NCBI GenBank assembly: GCA_964387845.1
Contig: CAYLXA010000009.1
Span: 42,098-106,097, forward strand
DNA: 64,000 nucleotides
From: an uncultured bacterium
GTDB taxonomy: Bacteria > Omnitrophota > Omnitrophia > Omnitrophales > Abzuiibacteriaceae
Direction of reading: 5' to 3'
In this document: positions 8,645 through 49,076 of the stretch, one piece after another
Numbering within the stretch: position 1 is the stretch's first letter
Layout of the letters: each line of letters opens with the position of its first letter
Notes under the pieces: model-generated
Told to the model about the DNA's origin: nothing
The model's input: the letters and a program-made list of their open reading frames with translations, nothing else
The model's database searches: none
Position numbers and translations under genes: made by a program

Positions 8645-8651
8645 GTTTTTA

Positions 8652-8679
8652 GTGATAAGTGATAAGTGGTAAGTGGTAA
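8652..8679. repeat. Four tandem heptamers in the 75-nt B-A spacer: GTGATAA x2 then GTGGTAA x2.
   Basis: Read directly: agtgataagtgataagtggtaagtggtaag. On the coding (minus) strand this is CTTACCA CTTACCA CTTATCA CTTATCA, ending about 10 nt before the A start codon. Confidence 0.7.
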
Positions 8680-8702
8680 GCAACTTAAAACTTACCACTT
8701 AC
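8669..8702. promoter_or_regulatory. Perfect 12-bp inverted repeat with a 10-nt loop between the stop of B and the start of A.
   Basis: gtaagtggtaag (8669..8680), loop caacttaaaa, cttaccacttac (8691..8702). The left arm overlaps the heptamer repeats. No U-tract follows on the transcribed strand, so it is not a canonical intrinsic terminator. Candidate RNA processing or regulatory stem, or a protein-binding site. Confidence 0.5.
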
Positions 8703-32100: not shown

Positions 32101-35100
32101 TGGCCGTCTAAGCCCGGTTTTGCCATTAAAATGCGGACGGGCACTTTGCTTTCGATTTTCCGGATCGGCGCTTGCCGGCTCGTTTTAGACGGAAATACGC
32201 TCTTTTTAAAATCACCAAATACGCCGCGCACGGCATCCATCATTTCACCGACGGTTGCTTCCGCGAGCGCGGCTTTAATAAAGTAAGGCATCACATTTTC
32301 ATTCTCTTCAGCTGCTTTTGTAATCTCGGCCAAGGCTTTCCGTACTTTTTCATTGTCGCGTGTTTGTTTCAGTTTTTCTAAATTACCCAAAACTTCGGCG
32401 CGGCGTTCCTCGTAAGATCCCATCCGCTCACGCAGCATTTCTTCGGTAATGTCAACTTTTTCCGCTTTTTCTTCCCTTACCCCTTGCCCCTTGCCCTTTA
32501 ATCCTTGTTTGGTGAGTCTTTCTTCCCGCAGCATTCCTTTTTTGGTCACTTCATCCTGAATGGCGTCGCGCATGTACTGCTCGACCGCTTCCTGGCCTTC
32601 GGTTTCATTTAATTGAATCAAAAATTGAATCAGCGCCGCGGCTTGATTGATAATTTCATCCGTGTATTTTTCAAGCAAATAACTGCCGCCGTTCGGATCC
32701 ACTTGCTTGTCTGCGATTTGCTTTAAAATTTCATGGCTTCTCAGCGCGACTTTTGCGGCATGTTCGGATGGCAGGCGCCTGTTCTCATCGTAACTATCCA
32801 AATGAAGCGTTTGCGTGCCGCCGTCAACCGCAACCAGGCCTTCCGCCAAAATGCGGGCGATATTGGCCGGCTCATCCACCCCTTCCGGATCTCCTTTTAA
32901 AGGAACGCCTGAAGTCTGTGTGTGTACCCGGAACATCAGCGCTTTATTTTTATTTTCATCGCGTGCTTTCAAAATATGGCGGGCAATAATAGCCCACAGT
33001 TCGCGCGCAGCGCGGAACTTGGCGGTTTCGTAGGTTTTGGTTTCGCCGGTTTCGTCCATCAAAAGCGAATCAAAGAAAAATGAAAATTGCTCGAGCACCT
33101 GATTCACGGTCACTTGGCTTCCCGGGCGCTGATTTTTGAAGAAATTCTGCGCATACAAAATCGCGTTCATCAGCGTAAACGCAACTTCCTGAACGGCCGA
33201 TGAGCCGGCTTCGCGCATGTGATAACCGCTGATTGAAATCGTGTTGAACCTCGAACCTGCGAAATACTCGAACATATCGTTTGCGAGACGCATGGAGCCC
33301 TTCGCTGAAATACCGTAATTGTTGCGCGTGGTTCTTTCTTTGTTGTTGTCGTTTTGGACAGTGCCGCGGAGTGTTTTCTTGGCGAGTTCGATTGCTTCGG
33401 CTTCTGACAAACTGCTGTCTTTCTGCATGAGCCGTTTCGTGCCGAGTGCGATATACATCGCCAAAATCGGCCCTGCGGATGCGTTGATCGTCATCGAAGT
33501 GGAAACTTCGCCGTCTGTGATGTCGATTCCGTCAAAAATGGTTTCCATGTCGCGGATCGAATCGACCGGTGCGCCCTCGGTTCCGATGTTGTAAATCGCG
33601 CGCGGGTCATCGGAATCAATGCCGACTTGCGTCGCGTTCTGAAACGCCAGACTGAATGCTTTGAATCCTCTTTCTAAAAACAGGCGGAATCTTTCGTTGG
33701 TTTCACGTGCCGTGCTGTAACCCGCATACTGCCGCGGCGTGACAGATTTGTAAGTCGCAAATGCGCCCCGGCGGAACGGATATTGGCCCGGCACCTGAAC
33801 GGCCGGTACATCGCCGAAATCAAAAATGCGCGGCACCGGCTGCGCTTCGTTGGGGTCTAAAAGCCCGATGCTGTAGATCGATTCGCCGCGCTCACGGAGG
33901 AACTTGGACATTTCATGATCGGGATCCTCGGGTTCAATGAATTCAATAACACCTAGGTTTTCCGGCAGTTCCAAGACCGCTATTTTTAGTTTTGCATCTT
34001 TATCTTCATATATAGGAAGGCCGAATGACGCCGCGCTGGAAACAGGAATCATGATGCTGACGCGTTCTTTGGCAATACTTTTTAACCTGTCGTCCTGAAG
34101 CCAGCTCTCCCTGGCTTTCTGAATCATGGGCTCCGCAATTTTTGAAATTTCTCCGGCAATCACCTTTTGATGGTGTGTCTCCCGGAGGATTTGCACCAAA
34201 TACGGAACCGATTGCTGAACGGTGATAAGCTCTTTCTCGGCAAGTTTTCTTTTAGTGGTCGGTTTTGTTTTTTGATTCAAATGAGCCAAATGCGCCGATA
34301 TCCGGAGTAAAAGTTCTGAAAATCCTTTTTGTTTTTCGCCGGTTGAAACGGTTTGAACCGCAAGCGGCTGCCATCCGTCTTCACGCGCAGGCTGTGTTGA
34401 AAGACCGGCTTCGAGGTCGTGAATGGCGACAAACGCGCGTTCCGTGTCCGCCTGGTTTAATACCGCAATATCGGGCGTTTCCATGGAACCTGCTTTCATG
34501 GTCTGAATTTCACCCAGATAAGCGGGACTTAAAGTCAAAAGAAGCGTGTCGGAAACTTTCCTGATTTCATCCTGAGTTTGGCCGGCGCCTTCGGTTTCGA
34601 TCAAAACAACATCCACGCCCATGTGGTCCATTAATTTGGCAACTTCATCCGTCGTTTTGGCAATGCCGCCTTGGCCGTCGCGCAAACTGACGCTTCGGAT
34701 CATGACGCCCGTGTCATCCGCCAAATTACCCATGCGGTACCGGTCTACGAGAAATGCCCCGCCCGAAGAGTCTGATGACGGGTCTACGCTGACGATTCCA
34801 ACCCGAAGACCCGTTCGCCTGATTTCGCCGGCAAGGTTTGCGATAAATGAACTTTTACCGACTCCGGGCGGCCCCGTGATTCCGATCCGGTAAGAATTGC
34901 GCGGCAGTTTTTGAATTTCAGAAACAACAACCGGCCGGATTTCTTCACCGGTACTTTCCATAAAAGTCATGAGCCGCGCAGCGGCGCGATGATCGCCTTG
35001 CTTGACCAAATTTAACAACTGACGGGTTTCCCACCAGATCAGCGGCATTGTGATACCGGATTTTCCGGAAGCGGCAATAACCCTTCTTTTAGCCGAAAAC

Positions 35101-38100
35101 TTTTCGAGATAATCCGCTAAATTTTTCTCATCCAAAATCCTGCCGGCAGGTTTATTTTCAAAAACCTGATAAATTACATCACCGTCAGATTGGCCGCCAT
35201 AAACAACAACTGCGCGGTCTTTCAAACTCGAAACTTCATGCGCAAGGAGGCCCTTCAGCTGCATGTCTTCTTCTGATTGGGGATCCAAATACACGATATC
35301 CGCATCTTCATCAATCGCGGCGCGCGCGATATGACGCGCTGCTTCCGGATTTTCCGATGTTTCCCGGACATAAATCACTTCGAAACCCTTTGAGCGGAAA
35401 AACTCCGCGGCAGCTAATGAACGATTTTTATCTCCAAGTTCCACGACCAGCGCGCGCCCTTTCGCCAATTTAAATTCCGAAGCAGGGCCCGCTGCCGGCT
35501 TGGAATGTACTTTTAAAAATTCTCCGTGCCGGCTGACGGCATCAATGAGTTCCGAAATTCCTTTGCCTTCGCCCTCAATCGCGACCGTTTCAATCACAGG
35601 CGGCATCCATTCGTCTTTCGCTTGAGGTTTTTGGAAAACGCGCTTTGCAATTTCCGCCGTTTCGCGGGCACCTTTTCGGTCGGCTTTATTGACAACCAGC
35701 ACATCCGCAACGGTCAAGTAGCTGTCCTTGCTGAGCGTTAAAATATCGCCTGACTCGGGCGGAATCGCAGCCACCATGGTATCCGTAATTTTCCGGATTT
35801 CTTTTTGGGATTGGCCGACACCTTCGGTTTCGATGAAAACAAAATCCTTTGGAGTTCCGGAATCAACTCCGTAAATATCAAACACTTTTGCGACTTGTTC
35901 GGTTGTTTTTGCAATGCCGCCAACGCCGCCGCGCGTCGCCATGCTCCTGTAAAATACATTTTCATCCGTCAGCAGTTCGCGGGAAAGCCGCATTCTGTCC
36001 GCCAAAATTGCGCCGCCCGTAACGGGGCTTGTGGGATCAATCGCGATCGCCGCAATGCGTTTTCCCTGCCGCCTGTATTGTACGATCATGTCTTCGACCA
36101 GCGTGCTTTTGCCCACACCGACCGCGCCTGTGACGCCGATTCGGCGCGGTTTTTGCTCGATATGAATGGCGTCCAATTTTTGATGAATCAATTCCGCAAC
36201 TTCACCGCCGTTTTCAATGAATGAAATCAACTCACCGGCTGCATGGTCATCGCCCGCGCGGACTTTTGAAATGAGCGTATCCACTTCGGCGTTTCGAAGT
36301 TCGGAACGCGAAGTCAAGGTTTGTGCCGCCAACCGGGCAAGCTTTTGGCTGTCCTCGCGGCGGCCACGTGACCCGACCCAAACCGCGATTCCGACCGGAA
36401 TCATAACAAAAAACATTGAAGTTCCAAGCGCATAAAACAGGCCGATTACTTTTTTCTGGAACAAAAAGTCTTCGTATGCATCCCCTAAGATTAGCTGCTG
36501 AAGATTTTCACCGTTTGCAAATAGAAATTCGGGCCTTTCGCTCAACACGGTATCGCGAAGGCGCATGACGTCCATGCTCGCATCATTGCGGACGATTAAA
36601 TAAGCGAAGTCGCGCCCGTCTGTTCCTGCTTGGATATCAATGCGGATAATTTTGTCGTTGATGTCCGGTAAAGATTTAATGCTCGAAAAGGAAAGGGCTT
36701 CTTTTATCCTGTCCTGCAAATACGCATTGTTGCCGAATTTTCCGCCCAATTGATCGTTGATCACAATCGGCAAGTCGGTACCTTTCGCTTCTTTAAGCGC
36801 ACGCTCGGCGGCGCGGACCGGATCCATATACCAAAAATAGGCCGCACTTGAGATCGGAAGCACAACAACCATCGCGATGAGGAACGACAGCAGTTTGTGC
36901 TTCGAAATCCAGCGCGGATATTGGCGGTACCAAACTCTCTGCTTTTTATCGATTCTATGAACCTTGCGCAGATAATCGAGAACCTTCGCCTCAAATAAAG
37001 AATATTTCTTCGGTAAATTTAGGTCAGTTGGCTGAGTTTGATCAGTCACCTTGCTTGTAACGTAACCGCTTGGTTTCAGAAAACCTTTTTCCCTAAGGTG
37101 GTTATAAATTTTCTCGGATTCCGTTTCGTTAAGCCAGGTTAAAGTGGGGCCATCGGACAAATAGGTAATTGCCGATCGGCTGGCGGCATCATCGTTATCC
37201 GGCGTTAGGTTGGCAAAATCACCGGCATGAACTCTTGCCCGCAGCTCTGAGCGCGAAGAATCTGCTTCTTTGTTCCTCGGTTTTGGTTTTAAAGAACTGA
37301 CGATACTTAGAGTTTCCAGTTCCTTCATGACATTGACGGTAAAAATAACGGAAACAGCGACTGTGATCATGGCGCCCGCAGTTAAAAGAGTAGGCACAGC
37401 AATCCACCAAGGCAATATTTGACCATCTAAAAGCGGATTCTTGGACTTGTCTCCCGTTCTCAACTCCGACCTGGCTTCCCTTTGAAGGAAAGTCGTTAAG
37501 CTCATCATAGCGGGCAGGCCCGATTCAGGCTTCGGAAATGGTTTAGCATCCCTCGTACGCACACCGGAAAGAGCCGCAATTAAGCGATACTCGGTATAAG
37601 GCATGATGGTTTGTGAAATCCAATGGGTGCCCCAATAAGCGGAGGCCGGCACTTGAGCGGCTTTGTTAACTGCCGTCACCGGATCATCTGAAGACAAGAA
37701 AACATCAGGGTCGGCGGTATGAAGTTCAAGCAAAATTAAGCCGTGATTAATATATTTTTCCCAGCGCTGGAAAAATTTGATAAGGTCGGCCGCCGCTACA
37801 ACCGCGGGCACTAATTTTCCTTTATCAGAATAGGAAGTCCTGAATCGTGTAGCGATTAACTCGCTCAAGTCATCAAGATTTTCAGGCAAGGGCTGTATGT
37901 TAAGAATGCTCTGAAGAAGCGCTCTGTCTGTTTTCAAGACAGCTTCTTTAAGAATCTCTCTTGCTTCGTCTATACTTTTAATTTTCAGCTTTCTTTCGTG
38001 AGGCAAAACCATCTGCATATGCAGAAGATCCCGGGCGCCGACCGGGCGGTTCATCCGCAATTCGCGGTCATAAATAACCATACGCCTGTCCGCCATGCTC

Positions 38101-39689
38101 TTCTTAATTGCTTCGTCATACTCTTCCGGGTTTGTAACATCGCCGAACAACACATCCGTGACGATACCTTCGGTATTTTCAAATGCTTTTAACGTGTTTG
38201 CTTCTCTTAGGCGGGATTTTTCGTTGTAGTCAGCAGCAATTACAACCAACGGATGTTCCTTGAGATGTTTGCCGCGCAAAGTGTTCTGAATAATGTGATC
38301 GACTGTTAATTTTAAAAGATGCCCGTCGCCTGCGCCCATATCCGCAATTCCGGCAGGCTGGGCTTCAATAGGCGCGTTAAAAATCCGGTCAACCCGCGCA
38401 ATAATATCTTGGATATAAGCTTTATGCGCAAAGCTGCTGCCCCAGATATCCATCACGCGGTCAATGTGGCCGTCCCGGTCAATACCAAGCGGATCCGGAT
38501 TTCCAAAAAGCATTTGGTCTAAAACTTTGTAGGATTTTAAATAGGATGTCGTAACGCCATAGCTGCCCACTTTCTTCATAAACGACAGCCCTTTGGGTGT
38601 GAGGCGGACTAGATGACGCTGATGCGGCTGCCGCTCGGCCAGACTATGTATTGCCAACAGGTCGAATGCTGCGTCTATAAAACCGCGCTGAAAGCTTTCG
38701 GAAATGAGCCCAATATCAAAACTATTGTTTTGAGCTTCTAATTGATTAAAGATTGATTCTCCGACTTGGACAATTTCGCCGTCAACATCGCGATAAACAG
38801 GCATACCGAGCGCCACCATCGTTGCGCTCATGATGATACCGTCGATTTGAGTCCGTACTTCCTCAATTACCCTGCCCACTACCCTTGAATCATGGTGCCT
38901 GAATATAGGACTGGATGAGCTTGGCAAACTCCATCCACGCGCACTTTGTTCAACCAATGCCTTATACTGCTTAAGTTCCACGTAGCGCCCGTCTTGGCTT
39001 GGTTGATGAAAATATTCATGAAGCCTTACAACGTCCGCGATTCCTTTAACCGGTGTTTCTAAATAGCCGGCATTTGCAAGCAATGCCGCAATCTGCCCTT
39101 TTTCCGTTAGTGAAAAAACGGTCTGCTGGTCAATGCCCCACATCCTAACCCACCCCTGCAGGGCAAGCGTCCGCATCGCTCCGTAAATGTTGCCTGCATT
39201 AAATTTTTCTCCATACGATGCAAACCTTGACTCTAAACTGGCTAAACTTAAGGATTCAGGCTGTGTCCAAGACCCGAATTGATAGAAAACACCCGCTTTA
39301 GATAAATAATGAAGTATGGGAATTGTCATAAGGCCGTTAATGTGCTGGAAGATCAGCGACCGAACTTCGCTTTCGGATACAGGGCCGATATTGGATCTTA
39401 ATTCCGACCTGGGATTAAAAAGCGTTTTGACAAACTGGACGGTGATATCCGCGAGCGAATGCTGCTCTAAGATTTTTTCTTCCGGAAGATCAAGTTCTTT
39501 TCTGAGTTCGGAACGGAATGCGGGCACCATATCCGCCGATTCCGGACGCAGCGTAGAATTATATTTCAGCGCCGAGGTCAGGTAAGGAATGTCGGAATAA
39601 GCGATAGAACTTGTAAATGAAAACGAAACTACAAGCAGTGCAGAAATTAACTTAAGAAAATAATTTTGTTTCATCTTATCCCTTACCAC
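26148..39689 (-). CDS. Giant mosaic polyprotein C, 4513 aa, built from methylmalonyl/propionyl-CoA modules. The likely true start is the ATG at 39672..39674.
   Basis: ORF-track start is GTG at 39687..39689. The in-frame ATG 5 codons downstream (39672..39674) is preceded by AAGGGA (plus strand 39679..39684) at SD distance, and lies 2 nt after the TAA of ORF X (GGT AAG GGA TAA g ATG). This indicates translational coupling. The leader from the ATG reads [28 protein letters not shown]. Confidence 0.85.
   Translation of the reverse strand: [4513 protein letters not shown]
26151..26700 (-). other. C-terminal conserved region of C.
   Basis: ...[34 protein letters not shown]...[30 protein letters not shown]...[11 protein letters not shown]. 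The FDEGL block is also found in E. Confidence 0.4.
26775..26789 (-). other. Example RSELR site in C (codons AGA TCG GAG CTT CGC).
   Basis: Plus strand gcgaagctccgatct. Reads [15 protein letters not shown]. Confidence 0.9.
26800..27380 (-). other. Module in C: P-loop nucleoside/sugar kinase-like (uridine kinase/PRK family).
   Basis: [22 protein letters not shown] (~27300..27345), [17 protein letters not shown]. Preceded by [12 protein letters not shown] and followed by [11 protein letters not shown] (26775..26789). Confidence 0.45.
27560..28330 (-). other. Module in C: carboxyltransferase alpha (AccA-like).
   Basis: [72 protein letters not shown] (~27855..27890), [14 protein letters not shown]. 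No biotinyl-carrier (AMKM) domain was seen in C. Confidence 0.85.
28340..29230 (-). other. Module in C: acetyl/propionyl-CoA carboxyltransferase beta (AccD-like) with a partially degenerate zinc ribbon.
   Basis: [22 protein letters not shown] (~29155..29200, only one CxxC pair), [60 protein letters not shown]. Confidence 0.85.
29260..30700 (-). other. Module in C: biotin carboxylase (ATP-grasp) with BC C-terminal domain. The glycine-rich ATP loop is partly degenerate.
   Basis: [11 protein letters not shown]..., [27 protein letters not shown] (~30185..30260; canonical KASAGGGGKGM), [33 protein letters not shown]. C-terminal domain [14 protein letters not shown]...FDTNYL. Confidence 0.65.
30950..31650 (-). 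other. Module in C: SAM-dependent methyltransferase-like, copy 2.
   Basis: [21 protein letters not shown] (~31495..31540). Confidence 0.5.
31790..33830 (-). other. Module in C: B12-dependent acyl-CoA mutase (methylmalonyl-CoA mutase family), catalytic barrel plus canonical B12-binding domain.
   Basis: [27 protein letters not shown] (~33740..33810), [20 protein letters not shown], and the B12 domain [34 protein letters not shown] (~32090..32190, DxHxxG present). Confidence 0.85.
33850..34060 (-). other. Module in C: glyoxalase/VOC-fold segment, methylmalonyl-CoA epimerase-like.
   Basis: [64 protein letters not shown]. Confidence 0.35.
34000..35050 (-). other. Module in C: MeaB/ArgK-family GTPase, copy 2.
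   Basis: [76 protein letters not shown] (~34860..34905). Confidence 0.8.
35250..36230 (-). other. Module in C: MeaB/ArgK-family G3E GTPase (mutase chaperone), copy 1. Followed by a Rossmann B12-binding-like domain that lacks DxHxxG.
   Basis: [77 protein letters not shown] (P-loop at ~36110..36160). Preceded by [12 protein letters not shown]. Confidence 0.8.
37800..38500 (-). other. Module in C: SAM-dependent methyltransferase-like, copy 1.
   Basis: [24 protein letters not shown] (motif I, ~38300..38370). Confidence 0.5.
39590..39689 (-). other. Leader of C: conserved Sec-like leader.
   Basis: (MVRDK)[35 protein letters not shown]. First RSELR at about residue 58. Confidence 0.6.
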
Positions 39690-41250
39690 TGCTTTCGTCA
39701 GATTCCCCTTTAATGTACCAGCGGCCGTTTTCCCATTTTTCCGTGAGCATGCGGCGGTAAAGTTCGGGGCCTTGGCTGAGGCCGACAGTCGGCGCGATTA
39801 CGACAACGTTAAAGCCAATCCGGTTCAGTTTTCGGATAAGGCGTTCTTTATGGAAACCGCCCGCGATTAAAACGGATTCGGGTTCCCGGTCAGCTTTGAT
39901 TTTCTCCGTGAGATTTTCCACGAGCGCCTGGTCGCGCATGTTGGCGATGCGGTAAAAAGATTGAAATTCATCGAGTGTTTCATCCAGTTTCGCCAAATTA
40001 GACGGTAACGAAATATTTTTTCCCTGCCCGCCGGCCTGCGCATTGAGAAAATTTTTCCATCCTGCGATTTTGAAGCGGTCGCGCTCGTCCATGAAAACCT
40101 GATACTGCTCAGGGACGAGCTCCAATTTGACAAGCGATTCCAGAATCACGAGATCGTTTGACATCCGGTAAACCCGCTTCCCTTCCGGTGTTTCCAAAAA
40201 TGCGTCTGCAATACGGTCTGTGAGCTTTGCTTTTTCATCGAAAAACGCGAGCGAATCAATCTGATCCTGCTTCCTCAAATACGGAATAGCGCCTTTGACG
40301 GACGGATACTTATTGGTATCGATCGAATTTTTTTCGGCAAGTTCGATTAATTTTTCGTAAAAATCGGCGCGCTTATTGGCGTCTTTCTCAACGCCGTGTT
40401 CCGTATCCAAAACCGCGCGCAGTTCTTTGGCATCGACGCGGCGCTGCATCTCACGGACCAATTGTGTGCGCTCGTAATCGACTTTTTCGAAATCGGCGGT
40501 AGATTCCAATTTAATCAAACTGGAAAGCACTTCGACGTTCGGATAATCCGAAATCGAGATATTTTTCTTAGCGGCGAACTGAAAAAGAAGTTTGGCTTCC
40601 TGGTGCAGGTTGTGTTTGGCTGTAAAATCCTCAAGCTGGGTTTCAAATTCTAAAAATTCCTTCGGATAGAGACCGGGCTTGACGGCATTCACCGCAATCC
40701 TGACCTGTTTGAGCTGGTCTAGCATGTTCTGCATGAGCGGCTCAACTTTGGTAAATGCAATCAGGTTTTCGTCATACAAAACCTGGCTTTCGATTCCCCA
40801 CAAGAGCAACGGATAGTCTTCCGTGAAGTTTAAATATTCTTCTCCCGAAATTTTGCCTTCGCGCATCAGTTTGGTGCCGATTTCAACGCGTTTCTCCTTA
40901 GGGCCCACGCGGTATTCCGACAAACTCACATCGCCGATTCCGCCTTCGACCAAAACAAGCCGGATGTCGCGCGCTTTGTGGAGCGACTCGATGATTTTTG
41001 CCATCGCTTTTTGAGCTTCAAAATTAACGTGTGCGTCTAGGATATAAAAGATATTGAAAGGCTTTGAGCCCGGATGGTATTCCGAAATGCGGCCGGTTTC
41101 TTCGGGAATCTTAATCTGCGCGATATCGGCAGGAAGCGACACTTTGGAGCTTGCTGAGTAAAGTTCAGGGGCGCCTAAAAAACTCAGGGAAGCTATCAGA
41201 GCTAGGCAAATTGCGGTTGTGCGAAAACGTGGAGTGAAAACCATATGCAA
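39676..41250 (-). CDS. ORF X, 524 aa. Signal-peptide protein with a tentative Tiki/TraB/GumN-superfamily hydrolase-like pattern. Candidate processing enzyme.
   Basis: Start is TTG at 41248..41250, 9 nt from the GGGAGG SD at 41260..41265. An alternative ATG lies at 41242..41244. Signal peptide MVFTPRFRTTAICLALIASLSFLGAPELYSAS. The N-terminal motif IFYILDAHV and C-terminal motif VLIAGGFHKERLIRKLNRIGFNVVVI resemble the two conserved blocks of TraB/GumN (hh-Y-L-G-T-H ... V-G-A-G-H-L ... G-Y-x-V). The match is weak. It has no RSELR motif. The stop is TAA at 39676..39678. Confidence 0.8.
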   Translation of the reverse strand: MHMVFTPRFRTTAICLALIASLSFLGAPELYSASSKVSLPADIAQIKIPEETGRISEYHPGSKPFNIFYILDAHVNFEAQKAMAKIIESLHKARDIRLVLVEGGIGDVSLSEYRVGPKEKRVEIGTKLMREGKISGEEYLNFTEDYPLLLWGIESQVLYDENLIAFTKVEPLMQNMLDQLKQVRIAVNAVKPGLYPKEFLEFETQLEDFTAKHNLHQEAKLLFQFAAKKNISISDYPNVEVLSSLIKLESTADFEKVDYERTQLVREMQRRVDAKELRAVLDTEHGVEKDANKRADFYEKLIELAEKNSIDTNKYPSVKGAIPYLRKQDQIDSLAFFDEKAKLTDRIADAFLETPEGKRVYRMSNDLVILESLVKLELVPEQYQVFMDERDRFKIAGWKNFLNAQAGGQGKNISLPSNLAKLDETLDEFQSFYRIANMRDQALVENLTEKIKADREPESVLIAGGFHKERLIRKLNRIGFNVVVIAPTVGLSQGPELYRRMLTEKWENGRWYIKGESDESSGKG

Positions 41251-41288
41251 TCAGCCCTACCTCCCTATTTAATTCTGATTCGTACGAT

Positions 41289-44200
41289 TTACGCCGAACG
41301 GAGCGTCCGCAATTCGCTGCGAAGCTGAATACTCAATTGCTCAACAATATCCCGGATGCCGAGCGCCCGATAAAGCGCGCTGACATCTTCGCGCGACACA
41401 TACTCGACAAGACTTTTGTAACGTTCGCCGAGACGCTCAAAAAATGCTTTTTCGCGCTTAGAAGCAAGAATGCGTGTTTTATTAGCACCTTTTTCGATTA
41501 ATTGCCGGCGCGCATCCGGATAACTTCTTGAAAATACCACATGATCGATTGAAATACCCTGAAGCACGTCCCGGATAGCGGCTTCACCGGTGCTGTCAAC
41601 CACAAATGCAATCCGGTCGACCTTCGGAACGATAAAACGAAGCGCCCACAAAAGCTCCTGGCCCTTTTCCGTTCTTTCGCTTTCGGCCAGCACAAGATCT
41701 TGAGTCAAAATCGTGCCAAGAACTTGATCGGATTGAGAAGGCGCAAAATAATCAAAGAAACGGATGGTGCTCGTGGGGTCATCATAATTGGGAAACCGCA
41801 GGTTTTCAACCGCTGCGTAGACAAACCCGCCAAGCTCTGTGCGCGCATTCCGATCAACCATATCGCCGAGCGTCGCAAAATCATCAACAACAGCACTTGA
41901 TGCCCTCAATTCAGATCGAATGCCGGATTTTTCACTGGTTGCGGCCAATTGAGATTCCGCGGATGGCCCTACGTTCCTCCGAACCACAATCTTTGAAATT
42001 AAATCCCTAATTCCGGAATCTGTTCTTTGATACGTACTCAAATTCGGTAATTTCAAACCTAAAGCCCCGGACAAACTTTTGAGCGTCGGGTGCTTAATTT
42101 TACCTTGAACCATTGATTGGAGCGCGACGCGAAGTCTGTCCCTTGTGGGGGCTGGTTTAGTTTCCATTTGGTCTTTCGAATTTCTGAGCGAACCTTCAGT
42201 GACAGCCCATTGTATGACTGCTTCAATAGCGGGATCGGACTTCCGATAGTTAACTAAAGTATCATAGGCGACATCCGCCTCAGCCGCTAACTCAGTTAAA
42301 GTTGTTTGCAGCCTACCTTCTTGGCCTAAGCGTTTCACCGTATCCAATATTCTGTCGCGGACAGACATCTTCGGAGTTTCTGTTTCTTCGCGCAACTCGG
42401 AACGGCCGGATTGTCGCGATCGGAAAGCCCGGATTCCTTCCATGAGCTGAGTGCCGGTGACAGCTATCGCTTCACTTGCACCGGAGCCACCCTGAATTTC
42501 TCGCTCAACATCTTTTATCTCCAGTGTATCAATGAACGCTGGGACCGTCTGATTATCAATATTCGATCCCGATGATTTCACATAATCGGCAAACAAACGG
42601 TCGATAGCAGAATTCACTTGGTCAGGAGTTGCCTCTGTCGCCCTTAATTCACTGCGCGGCTCCTGAATCCCGTCTGTATCAGAATCAGCCTGGCCGCTTT
42701 GCTCGGCTGTTTGAGCAACCGTAACGAAGTAGAAGGTCCCGCGTTTTGAAACACGGGCGCTTGGCACTGCGCCGGCTTCGGCTTGTTTCGGCATTGTTAG
42801 ATTGATTCGGTTTATCAGCCACTCCAAAGTAAGAAGATTGGAAACACGCTGATCTCCGTCACGATAGAGTTCGGCAATCAAGTAAGTTTGCCCCTCCACT
42901 TTCTCGGAAATTGCAATTTTGTAAGAATAAGGCTCGATCAGAAAAACACGCTGCTTTCTGCCCACATACTTGATTGCAATATGAAATGGGCCGCTTAATT
43001 CAACTGCTTTCCGGCCAAGTTTAAAATCAGATCTTTGCTTCGACAATTTAATAGGAACAACCCACAGCGCCGCCCAAAGGCCGGCTCCCAGCGCTGCGAA
43101 GCCGTACTGAGAAACAATATAAAAAAAGTCACTCGCGATGCTGACCGAACCTCCCAAATTATTTCTGAGCTCTGAACGCGAGGCAACTACCTCTGCATCT
43201 TCGGGGCCTAGATAAATTGTGTTTAAAATATCCTCGGGAATCAAAGCAACAATTTGTTTTGCAATAACGGCCGGAGCCCGAATGGCTGCCGATAAAGTAA
43301 AATTCGATATTTCAATGATCAGCGTTTCGTTGGCAATATCAAATTTAAAATTGACTATATCTTCATCTGGATCGGGATGTAATTTGATCTCAATGCGCGG
43401 AAGTATATCGAGATTACGGTGTGCACGGCCAAAAGCTGATATTAAATGTGAACGCAAATACTCTTGCGGAGTCACTTTCGCCTCTTTTGAAGCTGCTGAA
43501 GAGAAAGGTGTATTTGTCCGGTTTGCGAATGCCGAAAATCCTCGCTTGATTACTAAAGTGACTAACGAAATGACACCAGCGAATAAACCGCCGGCAATAT
43601 ATTGAGAACCGGCATACACCAAATCAGAATATTCGGATGCACGAAGTTCGGATTTCTCGGCGCTGCCGGCTTGCGTTTCCAATTCGGCAAGTAACTTTTC
43701 GGCTTCCCTATCAGCTTCGGCGCTCTTTTTAAAAAGCGACAGGAAGAGATATATGAGAAAAGTAGAAATAAAACTGACACCGATTGCTACCTGCATCGGC
43801 TTTGAAGGGTCATGCGAAAGCCATTTGGTTAGCTGGTAAACAACAAACCCCGAAATAGCAGACGCGCCGGCAGAAATCGCCAACCTTACCAGTGAATTAC
43901 GTAGTTCGGAACGGTGAGCATCATCCGAACTGGATTTTGGAGTTGAATTTTGATCTTTAATTTCACGAACAAAAAGTCGGAAGAAAATGCTCAACAGTAC
44001 ATTACCAATCCACAATCTGAATTTACGGGTTGAACTTTGGTCTGTGACTGAACTGCCTGCTACCGCGGCACTCATAAGGTCAAATTCATCGTCATTGTCA
44101 TTGGCAACCTGAGATCCGCTCGTTTGATTTGTCGCTTGTGGTTTTAAACGCCAATACGCAAGAAGCGTCAAGCCAATAATCGTTCCCACCACAATTAACC

Positions 44201-47200
44201 CAACCCAACCTGCAGCGGCTCCTGTCAGAATTTTTAACGGCAGGTTCAATTCCGACCACGCGCTGCGTAGTTCGGAACGATGAGTAGTAACGGGGACGGT
44301 AGACCCCACAACGCCAAGAAGATCGAAACGTGCGCTGCTGTCCACGCGCTGGTCTGCTTTTGTGATTAAATCAAAAAGAGACTGCAAAGCTTGTTTCTGA
44401 TTTTCGTCGCGGACTTGCGCAAAAGCAAGCTGCAAAGCAGCTTCGGCATGGCTAAGCTGGCCTTTATTGAAAATCACGGCGGCCTGACGGACTAAAGATT
44501 CTAAATCGACAATTTCCGTAGGAAGCGGGGCAAATGGAAGCGATTCAAAAAATTTCCGGCTCTCACGGTCAGCAAAAGCTTGAGGCGTAATGCCTTCCGC
44601 TTTGGCGCTTTGCAAAATAACTCTCGTGCGGTGTTGGATTAAAGCCGCGATAGAACTATCGGAAGAATCATGCCCCAAATGGCCGTCAACTCCGGTGACG
44701 CCACCGGCATTGGAAATATAATCCGGAACCGGTGTAATGCCCGCTGCTTTCAGCTCTTCCGCATCTTTCACCTTATCATAAAGCACATTATTCGTAGACC
44801 CGACAACGCCCTTTACTCCGGCAAACATTAACTCTTTTGCAGCATCCGCATTAATCACAGGCCCTCGGGCTGCCGGCACAAAAATATCGACATGATCAAC
44901 GCCCAGCCGGTTAAAATCATCTTTGAAATGCTTTGCCGGATTAAAAATCTTGGTTGTATAACCGCCGCCGGTTTTCGGTTCTTCCAAAAAGTGAAAGAAA
45001 CGGTTTTGGTCAGCGTAAGTTTTAAGCGCCGGATGATCTTCGAAAAGTTTATCGATCCTTCCCTGGCTTACATCCGAAGCGATGACAACGCCGCCTTCAT
45101 CCAAAATGGGCTGAATGACTTCGCTGCCGACACCACCCACGCCTTGAACTGTGAAAACTTTTCCCGCGATTTCGGGATTATCGGGAAAAATTTCTGATAA
45201 TAAACCTTTTAATGAAGCAATGATCCCAACGCCGGTCGGATGAGTCGGGACTTTGCTGTTTCCGGTTTCATCCGAATAAGGCACGATTGAAGTCGGCGCA
45301 AATTTAAACAGCAGTTCGGCGTCCCGGACCGAAATATTCATGTCTTGTCCCGTTAAAACACCGCCGCCGATTAAATTTCCTATTTTCTCAACTGCTTTAG
45401 CGTAACTTTCAAGAATCGCATCGCGTTCGGGAGACTGAACCGCCGGATTAACCTTGTGGCTTCGGATAGCCGATTTGGAGCCGCCGATTTTTAAACCATT
45501 AATACCGGCACCTGCATTTTTAAAACTCATTTCCTGAGAAAGTTCAAGAGCATCAATCAACGCATCGACATCGCTTTGATAGCTCAAAATTCGCGTGCCG
45601 CCGGTAGCGCGCCACTGCCCGTTTAGGACACGGCCTTTGCTCTGAATTTGGGTAAGCCGGTGAATGGCAACATAAGCGGTATAACCCAAGATCGGGTTGT
45701 CAATTTGAAATACGGCGTAATGCCGGTCCCAATGCTCACGGATCTGATCGACTGCTTCCGGAAAAGCCGCCATGAAATCACTCAAATTGCGCAATGCGTG
45801 GATTTCGGTGCCATCCGGCATCACCATTCCGTCAAGGCGCTTTGGGTCCAACCGGTTGGCTTCGATATCGTATAAACGCAAATCGGCCACAACAGCTTTG
45901 GCCTGCCCCACAACCGATTCGCCCTGCGAATGATAAAGCCCGATTTCAATCCGCTCAAAAATGCCGATTAACTGTTCAAAGGATTCCGCGAGAGATAAAA
46001 GTGTTTGCGCAGTGGGCGTACCGACAATATTAAATTTTTTTCTGGTTGAAAAATCTCTTAATACGGCAGCGAAACTCTGAAACTGGAAATTTAAGATTTG
46101 GACAGTCTTAAGATTGATTAATCCTGCATCAAGTACAACTTGAATATCGGTTTTGATTTTATTAAAAATCGGAGCGCGCACAACATCGCCCGCTACATCT
46201 CTTTCACTTTGTGTTGCCGCCGTTTCTTCCAGTTTCTGCGAACTGCTCTGAATTAACTGGACGCTTTCCAAAATAAGCCCCAGAACTTCACGAACATCCT
46301 TCTGCCGCAGCTCGGACTTTGCCAAATGGCTTGGCAAAGCCGAAGCAGTCCCGCGCAGTTCAGCGCGGGGCAGCTCGGCCGTTGATTTCGCCTCGGAGCG
46401 GGAAAGTTCTTCGAGAATAGAATCGGGTTGATTTGGATCGAGTATTTCCTTTAATTTTGCCAAAGCGATACTTCTATCTGAAAAATCTTTAACAGCCTGT
46501 ATCAATTCTGACAGCGCCTTGCCTGTAGGACTCGTCGGCGCTTCAGCACGAGTCCGATGTTTGTCATAGCGTAGCGAATCTACTAAAAGAAACGCTTCGT
46601 GGGCTTTGCCGTGAAGCTGCTTCCACCGATGGTATGTATTGGGCATATTTCGTTGGAAGCCTGCTAAATCTGACTCCAGTTGCTCAAATATTGATTGGGC
46701 TTGAATAAGGCTGCTGTGAATAAATCTTATATCCTTTTCGGTTTGATGAAATTCCGGAGCGCTTGGGTTGATCATGACCAAGACAGGAGGAAATTTTTGT
46801 TTCACTTTCTGAACCATAGGAATAAGTTGAGTTAAAATTTCTTCAAGAGTCGCGCGCAGCTCGGAGCGCGAATTCTTGAAAGCGTTGTTTCGGACGCCGG
46901 ATTGATACTTGAAAGAGGTGTAAACATAAGTAATCGCAGCACCAATAAGCCCTGCGCCTACGCCGATCAGAATATACAGCGGCGTTGATTCAATGCCGTA
47001 TCCAATACCGAGGATCGGAACGCTTACCGCGCCGGCGATGCCACCTGTAAAAAGACCGATAACCACGGAGTGAAGCACGCGCTCCCCTCGTGACATGTCT
47101 TTCAAAATACTGAATGACCTCGCCCGCAGCTCGGACTTTGCCAAATGGCTTGGCAAAACCGAAGCAGCCCCGCGCAGTTCAGCGCGGGGCAGCTCGGCCC

Positions 47201-49076
47201 TGTGAAGACGCTCCGTATCCACAGGTCTCTCGAGTTGTGGTTCCGAAGGAACTTTACGAACCTCGGAACGGCTATGCAATAATGGTAGTTTCGACAAAGG
47301 CGTACCTGCATTGCTATCGAGAAACTCTTGAACGAGCTTAGAAACTGTTTCCGCTTTTGCGTTTTCTGCTTTAACAGTAATAAGCCATGTTGGATAACTA
47401 TCCGCCCAAATAAACTGAAGGTCTTGATATTTCAAAAACCGTCGTGTTCCATAATAAGAATCGATAATTTCAACACCATTTTCATTTTGAGAAACAACCA
47501 CGCCTTGAATGTCGTCACTCTCCTTAATTTTTGCGTGCAGAAAATACCAATAACCCTTTACTCCAGGCTTATTATTCCCAAGATGAAAATGCATCCGATC
47601 CCAAAGATTCATCCAATCCTGGATACCTTCCACAACTTCAATAATTTCAATTTTCTTAGCTTTCTGTTTGGACTGCCGCAGCTCGGAGCGGGGCTTTTCG
47701 CCGTCACGCAGACGTGAATGCCGGGCTTGAGTAATGTGCGGCGTATCGTCTTCCACGGGCTCTTGAATATCCTTAGGATCTGCGCCGTGGCGAAGCTTTT
47801 GAAGATACGTCAAGTCAGCGTCTGCCTGCGGCGGCGTTTGGTCATCTTCCGATGCGTGGCGTAATTCTGAACGTTGGTCAGTTTTAGGTTGCGGTGTTAA
47901 TGTGGGCCACTCCTCCCAAACCCATTTCTTTCTCATACGTTCTTCCGCCGGATAATCAGTTGTACCAATCATGAAATGTGAGCCATGAGGAGAGAGCCAA
48001 TATTCATCCTCTGCACGGCCTTTACCAGAACTTACGGTCAGGACGAAATCTTGGTGTTCGCTAAGAATGGCGGTTACTTTTTCAACAAAAGCTTGTGTCG
48101 TGGCTTCATTCATTAAACGGTATCTCAAATTTGCTACTTCATCGTCAATGAAATCTTCAGAAGGCAATAAACCGCTTAAATTTAAATTTCTCACCTTCTC
48201 TTCAATGCTGTGAATAATTTGATTTTTTCTGATTTCACGCGCACTTAACACAGGAGCAGATTGATACGCCTTGCGCACCATGCGGTAATAAGTAATCGCA
48301 GCGCTAATAAGCCCTGTACCAACGCCGATCAAAACAGATGAGGCGGTCGATTTAATGTTGTATCCAGTGCCGAGAATCGGGACACTCAAAGAACCGACAA
48401 TACCTCCGACAAAAACACCGATGAGCAAGGTATTGGCAATAAGTTCTCCCCGCGACATACCCTTAAAAGCTCTTGCTCGCAATTCAGAACGGGATTCTGA
48501 TCGAGTTTCGATTGAAATTTGAACTTGATCGGTAGAGGCAACTATCACGTTCTCAAGCGCAGGCTTTAAGTCAAAACGGATAACTAACCAATCCGTACTG
48601 ACCGGAATGTTGCTTCCGTTGATTGAGATACCGGAAATACGGACATGGGACCAGGGGTCAAATTTGAGATGCAAACCGGTTTTTTGGCTGACGATATTTA
48701 AAATATCCAAAACGATTGAAGAGAGTTTCTTAGTTCCAATGCGCTGATTGTAAGAATACGGTTCTCCGTTGATGGTAAAATTGATATTCGACAGAGCCCG
48801 TTCGGTTGATTGCTCCGGAAGTCGTAATTCTGATTTTTTACCAAAATCATCCTCCGGAATTTCCAGTTTTGCGGGGATTTCAATGCCTGCTTTACGAAGC
48901 TCAGAACGCACGTTTGAGAACCCAGTGTGCGCTTCCGGATTTGCCCGTATGTGATAAACTTCGGAATTTTTAAGCGCAACAGAAGACGCAAAATCCGTGT
49001 AACCGACGGTACTAGTAAATGTAAAAGTGATGAGGAGTGTGAGCGAAATAATCTTCAAAAATGGCTTGCCGGACAT
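41289..49076 (-). CDS. Giant mosaic polyprotein D, 2595 aa. Contains TM modules, a Glu/Leu/Phe/Val-type dehydrogenase and a TetR-like HTH.
   Basis: ORF-track ORF. ATG at 49074..49076 with AAAGGGA 13 nt upstream. TAA at 41289..41291. Leader MSGKPFLKIISLTLLITFTFTSTVGYTD. It carries the largest number of RSELR-type motifs, about 18. Confidence 0.85.
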   Translation of the reverse strand: MSGKPFLKIISLTLLITFTFTSTVGYTDFASSVALKNSEVYHIRANPEAHTGFSNVRSELRKAGIEIPAKLEIPEDDFGKKSELRLPEQSTERALSNINFTINGEPYSYNQRIGTKKLSSIVLDILNIVSQKTGLHLKFDPWSHVRISGISINGSNIPVSTDWLVIRFDLKPALENVIVASTDQVQISIETRSESRSELRARAFKGMSRGELIANTLLIGVFVGGIVGSLSVPILGTGYNIKSTASSVLIGVGTGLISAAITYYRMVRKAYQSAPVLSAREIRKNQIIHSIEEKVRNLNLSGLLPSEDFIDDEVANLRYRLMNEATTQAFVEKVTAILSEHQDFVLTVSSGKGRAEDEYWLSPHGSHFMIGTTDYPAEERMRKKWVWEEWPTLTPQPKTDQRSELRHASEDDQTPPQADADLTYLQKLRHGADPKDIQEPVEDDTPHITQARHSRLRDGEKPRSELRQSKQKAKKIEIIEVVEGIQDWMNLWDRMHFHLGNNKPGVKGYWYFLHAKIKESDDIQGVVVSQNENGVEIIDSYYGTRRFLKYQDLQFIWADSYPTWLITVKAENAKAETVSKLVQEFLDSNAGTPLSKLPLLHSRSEVRKVPSEPQLERPVDTERLHRAELPRAELRGAASVLPSHLAKSELRARSFSILKDMSRGERVLHSVVIGLFTGGIAGAVSVPILGIGYGIESTPLYILIGVGAGLIGAAITYVYTSFKYQSGVRNNAFKNSRSELRATLEEILTQLIPMVQKVKQKFPPVLVMINPSAPEFHQTEKDIRFIHSSLIQAQSIFEQLESDLAGFQRNMPNTYHRWKQLHGKAHEAFLLVDSLRYDKHRTRAEAPTSPTGKALSELIQAVKDFSDRSIALAKLKEILDPNQPDSILEELSRSEAKSTAELPRAELRGTASALPSHLAKSELRQKDVREVLGLILESVQLIQSSSQKLEETAATQSERDVAGDVVRAPIFNKIKTDIQVVLDAGLINLKTVQILNFQFQSFAAVLRDFSTRKKFNIVGTPTAQTLLSLAESFEQLIGIFERIEIGLYHSQGESVVGQAKAVVADLRLYDIEANRLDPKRLDGMVMPDGTEIHALRNLSDFMAAFPEAVDQIREHWDRHYAVFQIDNPILGYTAYVAIHRLTQIQSKGRVLNGQWRATGGTRILSYQSDVDALIDALELSQEMSFKNAGAGINGLKIGGSKSAIRSHKVNPAVQSPERDAILESYAKAVEKIGNLIGGGVLTGQDMNISVRDAELLFKFAPTSIVPYSDETGNSKVPTHPTGVGIIASLKGLLSEIFPDNPEIAGKVFTVQGVGGVGSEVIQPILDEGGVVIASDVSQGRIDKLFEDHPALKTYADQNRFFHFLEEPKTGGGYTTKIFNPAKHFKDDFNRLGVDHVDIFVPAARGPVINADAAKELMFAGVKGVVGSTNNVLYDKVKDAEELKAAGITPVPDYISNAGGVTGVDGHLGHDSSDSSIAALIQHRTRVILQSAKAEGITPQAFADRESRKFFESLPFAPLPTEIVDLESLVRQAAVIFNKGQLSHAEAALQLAFAQVRDENQKQALQSLFDLITKADQRVDSSARFDLLGVVGSTVPVTTHRSELRSAWSELNLPLKILTGAAAGWVGLIVVGTIIGLTLLAYWRLKPQATNQTSGSQVANDNDDEFDLMSAAVAGSSVTDQSSTRKFRLWIGNVLLSIFFRLFVREIKDQNSTPKSSSDDAHRSELRNSLVRLAISAGASAISGFVVYQLTKWLSHDPSKPMQVAIGVSFISTFLIYLFLSLFKKSAEADREAEKLLAELETQAGSAEKSELRASEYSDLVYAGSQYIAGGLFAGVISLVTLVIKRGFSAFANRTNTPFSSAASKEAKVTPQEYLRSHLISAFGRAHRNLDILPRIEIKLHPDPDEDIVNFKFDIANETLIIEISNFTLSAAIRAPAVIAKQIVALIPEDILNTIYLGPEDAEVVASRSELRNNLGGSVSIASDFFYIVSQYGFAALGAGLWAALWVVPIKLSKQRSDFKLGRKAVELSGPFHIAIKYVGRKQRVFLIEPYSYKIAISEKVEGQTYLIAELYRDGDQRVSNLLTLEWLINRINLTMPKQAEAGAVPSARVSKRGTFYFVTVAQTAEQSGQADSDTDGIQEPRSELRATEATPDQVNSAIDRLFADYVKSSGSNIDNQTVPAFIDTLEIKDVEREIQGGSGASEAIAVTGTQLMEGIRAFRSRQSGRSELREETETPKMSVRDRILDTVKRLGQEGRLQTTLTELAAEADVAYDTLVNYRKSDPAIEAVIQWAVTEGSLRNSKDQMETKPAPTRDRLRVALQSMVQGKIKHPTLKSLSGALGLKLPNLSTYQRTDSGIRDLISKIVVRRNVGPSAESQLAATSEKSGIRSELRASSAVVDDFATLGDMVDRNARTELGGFVYAAVENLRFPNYDDPTSTIRFFDYFAPSQSDQVLGTILTQDLVLAESERTEKGQELLWALRFIVPKVDRIAFVVDSTGEAAIRDVLQGISIDHVVFSRSYPDARRQLIEKGANKTRILASKREKAFFERLGERYKSLVEYVSREDVSALYRALGIRDIVEQLSIQLRSELRTLRSA
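41292..41800 (-). other. C-terminal conserved region of D.
   Basis: ...LVLAESERTEKGQELLWALRFIVPKVDRIAFVVDSTGEAAIRDVLQGISIDHVVFSRS...QLRSELRTLRSA*. Confidence 0.4.
41904..41918 (-). other. Example RSELR site in D (codons CGA TCT GAA TTG AGG).
   Basis: Plus strand cctcaattcagatcg. Reads GIRSELRASSAVVDDF. Confidence 0.9.
42200..42375 (-). other. Module in D: TetR-family-like N-terminal HTH DNA-binding segment.
   Basis: MSVRDRILDTVKRLGQEGRLQTTLTELAAEADVAYDTLVNYRKSDPAIEAVIQ fits the TetR helix-turn-helix pattern (G..TT..IA..AGV..G.LY.HF.SKE). Confidence 0.45.
44650..45700 (-). other. Module in D: Glu/Leu/Phe/Val-type amino-acid dehydrogenase family.
   Basis: MSFKNAGAGINGLKIGGSKSAIRSHKV (~45425..45540, GGxK catalytic-Lys loop), VQGVGGVGSEVIQ (NAD loop), DIFVPAARG, AAGITPVPDYISNAGGV (~44700..44750). 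Confidence 0.7.
46324..46400. repeat. Copy 2 of a 77-nt near-identical direct repeat inside D.
   Basis: ccgcagctcggactttgccaaatggcttggcaaagccgaagcagtcccgcgcagttcagcgcggggcagctcggcc. Differs from copy 1 at 2 positions. Encodes ELPRAELRGTASALPSHLAKSELRQ. Confidence 0.8.
46930..47080 (-). other. Duplicated TM module in D, copy 2.
   Basis: VVIGLFTGGIAGAVSVPILGIGYGIESTPLYILIGVGAGLIGAAITYVY, preceded by KSELRARSFSILKDMSRGE. About 55% identical to copy 1. Confidence 0.55.
47123..47198. repeat. Copy 1 of the 77-nt direct repeat inside D. Contains a GC palindrome, 8-bp arms with a 6-nt spacer, at 47167..47188.
   Basis: cccgcagctcggactttgccaaatggcttggcaaaaccgaagcagccccgcgcagttcagcgcggggcagctcggcc. 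The palindrome is ccccgcgc-agttca-gcgcgggg. Encodes ELPRAELRGAASVLPSHLAKSELRA. Confidence 0.8.
48300..48450 (-). other. Duplicated TM module in D, copy 1 (two glycine-zipper-like helices).
   Basis: LLIGVFVGGIVGSLSVPILGTGYNIKSTASSVLIGVGTGLISAAITYY, preceded by SRSELRARAFKGMSRGE. Confidence 0.55.
48975..49076 (-). other. Leader of D: conserved Sec-like leader.
   Basis: MSGKPFLKIISLTLLITFTFTSTVGYTDFASS. First RSELR at about residue 56. Confidence 0.55.

Follow-up and report, generated by a model that had tools for sequence, protein, structure and literature searches.

A Tiki-superfamily hydrolase encoded beside or at the head of giant Omnitrophota proteins is a candidate for their processing enzyme

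The giant genes of the Omnitrophota are a recognised puzzle: do their products act as single chains, or are they cut up? Giant open reading frames (ORFs) of this phylum, and a 'multi-enzyme metabolic' class of them, have already been described. West-Roberts et al. 2023 (bioRxiv 10.1101/2023.11.21.568195) suggested that the giants are cleaved after translation via C39/S8 proteases, and stated that the cleavage points are unknown. Here we describe gene X, which lies in a row of giants on a stretch of 64,000 nucleotides (the window; contig CAYLXA010000009.1, positions 42,098 to 106,097) from an uncultured member of the Abzuiibacteriaceae. Through its genetic link to giants across the phylum, X is the best candidate for an enzyme that would cut the giants into working pieces. 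This answers to the same question in the same phylum as the C39/S8 proposal, with a different protease fold. We put at roughly 40% the probability that X is a processing endopeptidase directed specifically by RSELR, a pentapeptide that recurs in the giants of the window.

The closest described relatives of X belong to the Tiki/TraB/PrgY/GumN/ChaN/Ere superfamily (PF04187, PF01963). Like X, Tiki, PrgY and ChaN have an N-terminal export or anchor signal. X shares with the superfamily an acidic-x-His motif, a Glu 28 residues further on, an Arg in an RD motif and a C-terminal GxxH. It is unlike the superfamily in that no Pfam or NCBIfam model recognises it at threshold, a helical insertion of about 300 residues is present, and QDAH replaces GxxH at the first motif. 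It is also nearly confined to the Omnitrophota, where it usually forms the N-terminal domain of a protein of 1,000-5,500 aa.

The MARTX toxins provide a second comparison. In these giant exported proteins a built-in protease sets the effector modules free, which parallels the release proposed here for the giants associated with X. The processor in MARTX is a cysteine protease domain, however, while the Tiki-fold domain RRSP is cargo that attacks host Ras, and MARTX cargo consists of toxins whereas the giants linked to X carry enzymes of central metabolism and CoA pathways. RRSP (DUF5) is itself a metal-independent, sequence-specific endopeptidase of the Tiki fold with a 2His/2Glu site (PMC6254334), to which D70, H72, E100 and H465 of X correspond. 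The best structural matches of X are EreA/B/C and BcR135/136, which have a helical domain in the core and the same His-Glu pair. The Ere lid probably occupies the same topological position as the X insertion. Ere enzymes are soluble, cytoplasmic, stand-alone proteins of about 400 aa that act on macrolactones, whereas X carries a leader and is tied to giants. The proteases of viral polyproteins (pestivirus, picornavirus, alphavirus) are a functional analogy only. There the protease is part of the same unit, often at its N-terminus, acts in cis or in trans, and cuts at short lineage-specific sites. X has no homology to these systems, its host is cellular, the cargo is housekeeping metabolism, and the cleavage is putative.

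Gene X occupies 39676..41250 on the minus strand, with 524 codons from a TTG at 41250 or 522 aa from an ATG at 41244 (the start from which its residues are numbered here) and a TAA stop at 39678..39676. A public protein, P0001 (522 aa), is 100% identical. The ORFs of the window stand head-to-tail on the minus strand in the order E, D, X, C, A, F, and X is the sole gene of ordinary size among these six; every further ORF of 150 aa or more in the window is a giant or a short ORF nested inside a giant. A Shine-Dalgarno-like GGGAGG (41260..41265, minus strand) lies upstream of X, with a spacer of 9 nt to the TTG and 15 nt to the ATG, and a gap of 38 nt separates the stop of D from X. At the X-C junction, GGT AAG GGA TAA g ATG (39672..39684, minus strand), a single base stands between the TAA of X and the ATG of C at 39674..39672, and the AAGGGA just upstream of that ATG is a possible Shine-Dalgarno candidate. 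Neither the D-X gap nor the X-C junction shows a terminator-like site, and the scanned region as a whole yielded no promoter-like site. X itself contains no copy of RSELR. The initial annotation had picked out this ORF, from the letters alone, as a lone normal-sized gene among giants that lacks RSELR, is preceded by GGGAGG and has its stop at the ATG of C. Its description of the X locus was confirmed in every detail that could be checked.

X had also been credited with a Sec signal of its own. A hydrophobic helix is indeed present at residues 6-22 (41179..41229, minus strand), with a Kyte-Doolittle (KD) value of 1.7 and a helix in the AlphaFold2 (AF2) model. It is plausibly a signal peptide or a membrane (signal) anchor; a Sec signal is one reading of it, and the helix fits both. 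The sole cysteine of X, C13 (residue 15 in the numbering from TTG), lies in this helix. A lipobox was considered and rejected, since this single Cys is unconserved and stands in the middle of the helix in a poor context.

The residues of the putative active site are the most constant part of X. We compared the X of the window with 85 X-domain ORFs from genome loci, free or fused, at 25-30% identity. H72, E100 and R437 occur in 86 of 86 sequences and H465 in 85 of 85, while position 70 holds D in 82 sequences and E in the other 4; R437 is followed by D, E or N. The catalytic set of the superfamily is an acidic-x-His, a Glu 26-28 residues later, and the His of a C-terminal GxxH, and X has all of it as D70-A-H72, E100 and G462-G-F-H465. 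A conserved Arg before the C-terminal strand, in an RD/RN motif that is a defining feature of the superfamily, is present as R437. E. coli YbaP (TraB family, PF01963, E 9e-44) has the same layout, with GSIH41, E67, WRD and VGALH251, and G462-G-F-H465 of X is a GxxH motif like its VGALH. The spacing of 28 residues between H72 and E100 equals that between H85 and E113 of Bcr135 and between H3902 and E3930 of RRSP. The 2His/2Glu site has been described as E3900-x-H3902, E3930 and H4030 in RRSP and as H85/E113 in Bcr135 (PMC6254334). The two blocks on which the initial guess of a Tiki/TraB fold was based, IFYILDAHV (with D70 and H72) and VLIAGGFHK (with G462-G-F-H465), are real and are the best-conserved parts of the family. 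The catalytic His and Glu residues that such a guess predicts are there as well, with the His/Glu/Arg/His set intact across the 86 sequences. It is highly probable that X is a catalytically active hydrolase of the Tiki superfamily. Hydrolysis of peptide bonds would be the activity expected from Tiki and RRSP, and Ere enzymes use the same site on esters.

The predicted structure is in line with these residues. The AF2 model, built on 35 homologues (predicted local distance difference test, pLDDT, 87.3; predicted template modelling score, pTM, 0.73), has an alpha/beta core at residues ~50-153 and ~455-507, interrupted by an all-helical insertion of ~300 residues. The alpha/beta fold of the superfamily, a central parallel beta-sheet with flanking helices, is present in the model. 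The N-terminal half of the Tiki-type core can be placed at residues 45-153 (40786..41112, minus strand), with D70 at 41037..41035, H72 at 41031..41029 and E100 at 40947..40945. The helical insertion, residues 154-452 (39889..40785, minus strand), is specific to the family and ends in a helix that carries F430-Y431 and R437 (39936..39934). The C-terminal half of the core, residues 453-507 (39724..39888, minus strand), contains the motif VLIAGGFH with H465 (39852..39850) and a conserved P485. At the level of sequence, the C-terminal motif of PF04187 (ChaN, Tiki superfamily) aligns with X residues 421-467 at E=0.0016 and 18.9 bits, below the gathering cutoff of 27.7 bits. PF04187 is also the top Pfam family when homologues are scanned singly, in 17 of 35 full-length sequences (best 2.7e-4) and in 15 of 29 core-only sequences (best 1.9e-5). 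The TIKI superfamily as listed in PMC6254334 includes PMT (2ebf), HopBA1 (5t09), ChaN (2g5g), RRSP and Bcr135 (3b55). The model and the motifs support the placement of X as a divergent member of the Tiki/TraB/ChaN/erythromycin-esterase superfamily, with weak support from sequence.

The N-terminal half of the core also contains a conserved helix hairpin, VAExYLKxGKISGEEYLDI, at residues 116-141 (40822..40899, minus strand). It gives weak SHOCT_2 matches in 5 of 29 members (best 1.9e-4) and weakly matches a repeated AExLLRNGSISVREF of Gloeobacter Glr1262 and Glr2806 (PDB), which we take to be phycobilisome linkers. The hairpin is probably a common helix-turn-helix packing motif.

The genetic link between X and giant proteins extends across the phylum. 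Searched with a profile of X, 1.84 billion cluster representatives (50%-identity clusters) yielded 9,966 matches at E<=1e-3 and 6,682 at E<=1e-30. Species-representative genomes hold at least 462 X relatives, nearly all of them in metagenome-assembled genomes of Omnitrophota; the few outside are labelled Planctomycetia, Auribacterota, Ratteibacteria or Elusimicrobia. Among the best 146 representatives, 91 (~60%) reach 1000 aa or more and 64 reach 2000 aa or more, up to a maximum of 5568. In each of the matches listed, the X domain begins no later than residue ~140, with a typical span of ~10-550. The usual place of the X family is the N-terminal head of giant multi-enzyme proteins, and the family is essentially specific to the Omnitrophota.

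The genome loci tell the same story at closer range. Heads of fused giants make up 25 of the 85 X ORFs at 82 loci. Of 41 free X genes with 3 kb or more of sequence downstream, 27 are followed within 600 bp by an ORF of 800 aa or more on the same strand, often overlapping X or beginning within 30 nt, and 24 of 29 have a neighbour of this size on one side or the other. Adjacent pairs of X-headed giants occur in L018, L026 and L079. The cargo of X-fused giants is unrelated (CofD, PIG-L, nucleotidyl transferase and cNMP-binding domains), and what these giants have in common is the X head and a leader, K-x-[IV]-S-L-x-L-V-x-x-F-[ST]-F-x-N. The idea that some giants hold several X domains was dropped, because the i-Evalues of the additional hmmsearch domains greatly exceed 1. 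The initial annotation had proposed to check whether X co-occurs with polyprotein genes, and the outcome is strongly positive: X is fused to the N-termini of giants or encoded beside them, the genetic linkage expected of a polyprotein protease. Such fusion and fission of the domain argues strongly that X works on the giant chains or together with them, and a role tied to giant proteins is likely. In the lineage of the window, the best explanation is that the head has become a separate gene amid six or more headless giants that stand in an operon-like row. X is a new and very large family inside a known superfamily, in a new genetic setting.

The candidate site of action is RSELR. This pentapeptide occurs 8 times in giant A, 8 in C, 12 in D, 14 in E and 9 in F, 51 copies in all, and 5 copies of KSELR (4 in D and 1 in C) bring the total to 56. 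From composition, ~0.03 copies of RSELR would be expected in A, C, D and E together, versus 42 observed. Its copies draw on all the synonymous codons for R, S, E and L, and the motif is thus selected at the protein level; a nucleic-acid signal, such as an RNA processing site or a recombination scar, is rejected by the same observation. None of the 56 RSELR/KSELR copies falls inside a Pfam envelope, although envelopes cover 29% of residues (P ~5e-9). The motif is also rejected as a piece of repeated domains, since its flanks are unrelated and no copy lies inside a Pfam envelope.

RSELR is placed where the termini of free-standing proteins would fall. It stands 8-10 residues ahead of Rossmann beta-1 strands, for example in RSELR-NDVPHSVSRVAVFGAGIIG and RSELR-SRHEDNYVAVLGAGKMG, and 11 residues ahead of Biotin_carb_N. 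It also follows C-terminal domains at a distance of 17-23 residues (17 for AMP-binding_C, 23 for carboxyltransferase). In C, D and E the first copy comes ~55-60 residues into the chain; giant A ends 9 residues after an RSELR (...RSELRNVIELGRAA), and D ends 5 residues after one (...RSELRTLRSA). Right beside a C-terminus the motif would be senseless as a linker, and this position is one that suits a mark for processing or recognition. Some ten copies have a transmembrane (TM) helix 10-25 residues downstream, which means that those modules would begin with a signal anchor.

Comparison with related loci suggests that the segments between these marks can move. RSELR-rich giants also occur in L088-L090, whose X is 85-86% identical to that of the window. 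We compared C (26148..39674) with giants from two of these loci (L089:11941-19305, L089:19609-21569 and L090:8906-18463). Residues 460-1116 of the L089 giant match C 92-754, and the next block, 1100-2202, matches C 2988-4068; L089 thus skips 2,250 residues of C, which are found partly in the next gene there. In L090, residues 383-798 match C 813-1218. The homology blocks start and end at RSELR, and their order differs or they are split between genes, so RSELR segments behave as cassettes. Between the window and its relatives X is 85% conserved and the cargo 26-53%. In D and its L090 counterpart, whose alignment at 26% overall identity is unreliable, 32 of 65 motif columns and 91 of 303 flanking columns are identical. 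L088, L089 (11613-11969) and L090 (8578-8934) have a gene of 118 aa between X and the downstream giant that resembles 23S_rRNA_IVP/bAvd and is absent from the window; bAvd is an accessory protein of diversity-generating retroelements.

These observations can be combined in a mechanism, each step of which is conditional. X would be held at or beyond the membrane by its N-terminal hydrophobic helix. Its H72-E100 pair, with D70, R437 and H465 nearby, would activate water, by analogy with Ere, Tiki and RRSP. X would then cut the giant chains in trans at or beside RSELR, the mark of module boundaries. Such cuts would remove the leader of ~55 residues and the short C-terminal tails, and would release single enzymes and TM-anchored modules. 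Where X is fused to a giant, its N-terminal position could allow it to act in cis on the emerging chain. That the giants are the substrates of X, that RSELR is its site, and that a fused head works in cis and a free X in trans are what we infer. There is a precedent in RRSP and Tiki, both of which are site-specific endopeptidases of the Tiki fold (PMC6254334).

RSELR is one of several such marks. Pentapeptide enrichment scans with shuffling controls found boundary-type motifs in ~10 other giants, with unrelated flanks and 5-15 copies per giant. They include G[AS]R[LMA][AS] (8 copies in L060, 7 in L081 and 8 in L086), ARFxE (6 in L011), R[SA]E[LIMV]R (L067, L046, L007 and L001), TD[AP]SGAAP (15 in P0082 and 5 in P0066), RxSAA (7 in P0123) and ARTxT (5 in P0120). 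In five fused giants the first copy of the motif lies 40-110 residues past the X domain, at residue 587, 592, 598, 626 or 644, which is what the release of the head would require. The context of the catalytic His varies along with these dialects, being GGYHT in the GARxA lineages and GGFHK[DE] in the RSELR clade. A subfamily of free X proteins (P0014-P0030) has a conserved tail, E-[IMVF]-R-P-[VI]-x-x-x-E, after the core. This tail was considered as an alternative site dialect and dropped, as the downstream giant of L004 has no such motif.

A number of results pull away from X as an RSELR-directed endopeptidase. Some concern X itself. The best match of any member to PF04187 (1.9e-5) is still below gathering, the NCBIfam scan of X gave no match, and phmmer and hmmsearch runs against the PDB with X, the full profile and the core-only profile found no Tiki-family chain. 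Alignment of the full and core-only profiles by hhalign to the E. coli TraB-family protein YbaP gave nothing, and X thus has no statistically significant sequence match to any curated model of a family or to a member of known structure. The structure check proposed in the initial annotation had a divided outcome, although the fold guess itself was right at the level of structure. The AF2 model gives a Tiki-type core whose sequence includes the catalytic residues, but no curated sequence model reaches threshold, and Foldseek against the PDB was not significant, with the helical insertion drawing coiled-coil and toxin noise. The nearest structures to X are Ere-family esterases and a haem-binding protein, with no proteases among them, and the fold and residues do not tell a peptidase from an esterase. 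Other results concern the motif. RSELR is limited to one or two clades while the X family is phylum-wide, and all RSELR loci were found via X, which makes the co-occurrence circular in that direction. The match between dialect and X clade may reflect shared ancestry only. In ~70 of ~80 X-fused giants and in most loci no enriched pentapeptide rose above the shuffle maximum, in scans that did not search for degenerate sites. A general role of the family would thus not be tied to a fixed short motif: either degenerate sites are the rule, or what the family generally does is something other than cleavage directed by a motif. Lastly, the cargo needs ATP, CoA, NAD, biotin and B12, while the leaders of the giants resemble export signals.

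A first alternative is that X acts on the giants but not at RSELR. Its task could be the trimming or removal of the leader, quality control or the trimming of tails, and RSELR would then be cut by another protease, such as a chymotrypsin-fold module within certain giants, or serve as an uncleaved linker or docking motif. Tiki, for its part, trims the N-terminus of Wnt. The leader is common to the headless giants of the window and to X-fused giants, in which X comes directly after it, and most X-fused giants have no repeated motif. A possible second protease is also at hand: a Trypsin_2 domain (PF13365, E 2.6e-12) lies in an RSELR-bounded module of a relative with an 85% identical X (residues 1844-1987 of L090:8906-18463), and a cut after Arg would suit many serine proteases. 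This Trypsin_2 domain adjoins AceK kinase/phosphatase domains. No Trypsin_2 or other peptidase domain was found in the 64-kb window, however, while X is present at every RSELR locus seen. The first motif just past the X domain in five fused giants also speaks for motif-directed cleavage. RSELR stands ~30 residues after the leader, and removal of the leader and cleavage at RSELR could be one event. We regard an action of X on the giants away from RSELR as fairly unlikely.

Alternatively, X could be an Ere-type esterase or another non-peptide hydrolase that acts on a small molecule, a lipid, or a polymer of the envelope or of prey, and is joined to giants by a shared export route or a predatory or epibiotic function. 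The helical domain inserted in the core is a feature of Ere, and the His-Glu mechanism serves esters and peptides alike (PMC6254334). Such a substrate fits poorly with the fusion of X to thousands of otherwise unrelated giants, which points to a role on the chain, and with cargo domains that are wholly different from one giant to another. We consider this distinctly unlikely. A non-catalytic X, working as a ligand-binding or anchoring module or a membrane-proximal scaffold in the manner of ChaN or the inactive PMT C1/C2, would suit ChaN as the sole recurring Pfam match and a superfamily with inactive members (PMT lacks the 2His/2Glu motif; PMC6254334), but is very improbable given that H72, E100, R437 and H465 are invariant and D70 nearly so across 86 sequences at 25-30% identity, the pattern of an active site.

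The putative substrates of an RSELR-directed X are the five giants of the window, all on the minus strand. Giant E (49365..63677, 4770 aa) contains RidA, UDPGP and PGM domains. Giant D (41289..49076, 2595 aa) contains a Glu/Leu dehydrogenase and many TM modules. Giant C has ~4508 aa from the ATG at 39674 (26148..39674) within an ORF of 4513 aa (26148..39689). It opens with the leader, an AprA-like methyltransferase, a TM module, and MeaB with methylmalonyl-CoA mutase and a B12 domain, and continues with a second methyltransferase, biotin carboxylase with carboxyltransferase, and a kinase-like module. Giant A (8720..25876, 5718 aa) has two 3HCDH domains, ADH_zinc_N (an MDR-type dehydrogenase), MCM, an acyl-CoA synthetase, an HpcH-type lyase, a MaoC hydratase and an acyl-CoA dehydrogenase. 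Giant F (2..8698, 2899 codons) is represented by its N-terminal part, with PEP carboxykinase and triosephosphate isomerase, and is open to the left end of the window. Glycolytic and gluconeogenic enzymes within giants, here or in related loci, comprise triosephosphate isomerase, PEP carboxykinase, enolase, PGK and PGM (window F; L001:6212-9892; L088:4878-9863). This content suggests that housekeeping metabolism is expressed from giant ORFs. The giants of the window contain no C39 or S8 domain.

Several features recur at the ends of these chains and in their composition. The leader that opens the window giants reads K-x-[IV]-S-L-x-L-V-x-x-F-[ST]-F-[TY]-[NS]-x-[SAV]-[YF]-[SA] in its longer form (for example 39590..39674, 48990..49076 and 25780..25876). 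The same leader precedes X directly in the X-fused giants of L056, L068, L076, L078, L079 and L083, and it resembles an export or sorting signal specific to the phylum. The C-terminal residue is Ala in 8 of 9 complete giants (window, L089 and L090), usually in -[RSQE]-[SA]-A, with the ends GRAA, TRAA, LRSA, LSRA, LSAA, LQSA, LRSA and IESA. Giants A, C, D, E and F have 2 cysteines in 20,495 residues, both in one CxxC at C 3505 and 3508, and the mature part of X and the giants of related RSELR loci have none. Across all loci the median Cys content of giants is 0.23%, against 0.74% in ORFs of 250-700 aa. Avoidance of cysteine is typical of exported proteins in some bacteria.

A broader proposal, which we find somewhat unlikely, is that much of the core metabolism of the Omnitrophota is carried by exported or membrane-tethered, nearly cysteine-free polyproteins, punctuated by lineage-specific pentapeptides and released by an ancestrally N-terminal endopeptidase of the Tiki fold. 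The enzymes found in the window or in relatives include TIM, PEPCK, enolase, PGK, methylmalonyl-CoA mutase and propionyl-CoA-carboxylase-type enzymes. If the proposal is true, these cells would have their own version of the viral polyprotein strategy, with modules that act as shufflable cassettes. A conflict between metabolic domain content and predicted export topology has been noted in a 2026 Omnitrophota preprint. Neither that preprint nor West-Roberts et al. 2023 mentions Tiki, RSELR or polyproteins, and the former mentions neither TraB nor the word 'motif'. A single library-wide search for links of Omnitrophica or giant proteins with Tiki, TraB or 'bacterial polyprotein' brought up only the known giant-gene papers.

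For the question of whether Omnitrophota giants stay whole, this locus supplies a candidate enzyme of ~500 aa with an identifiable active site, a candidate site, RSELR, at module borders, and a phylum-wide genetic link between the two sides, X and the giants. The X locus thus makes the open question of the giant genes testable at the bench. If RSELR-directed processing by X is confirmed, gene and proteome annotation across the phylum would change, with one ORF standing for many proteins, and a very large prokaryotic branch of defined role would be added to the Tiki superfamily. Polyprotein expression of housekeeping metabolism in a cell would, moreover, be rare. Should X prove to be an esterase or a trimmer of leaders, the family would still define the previously unannotated head domain of thousands of giants.

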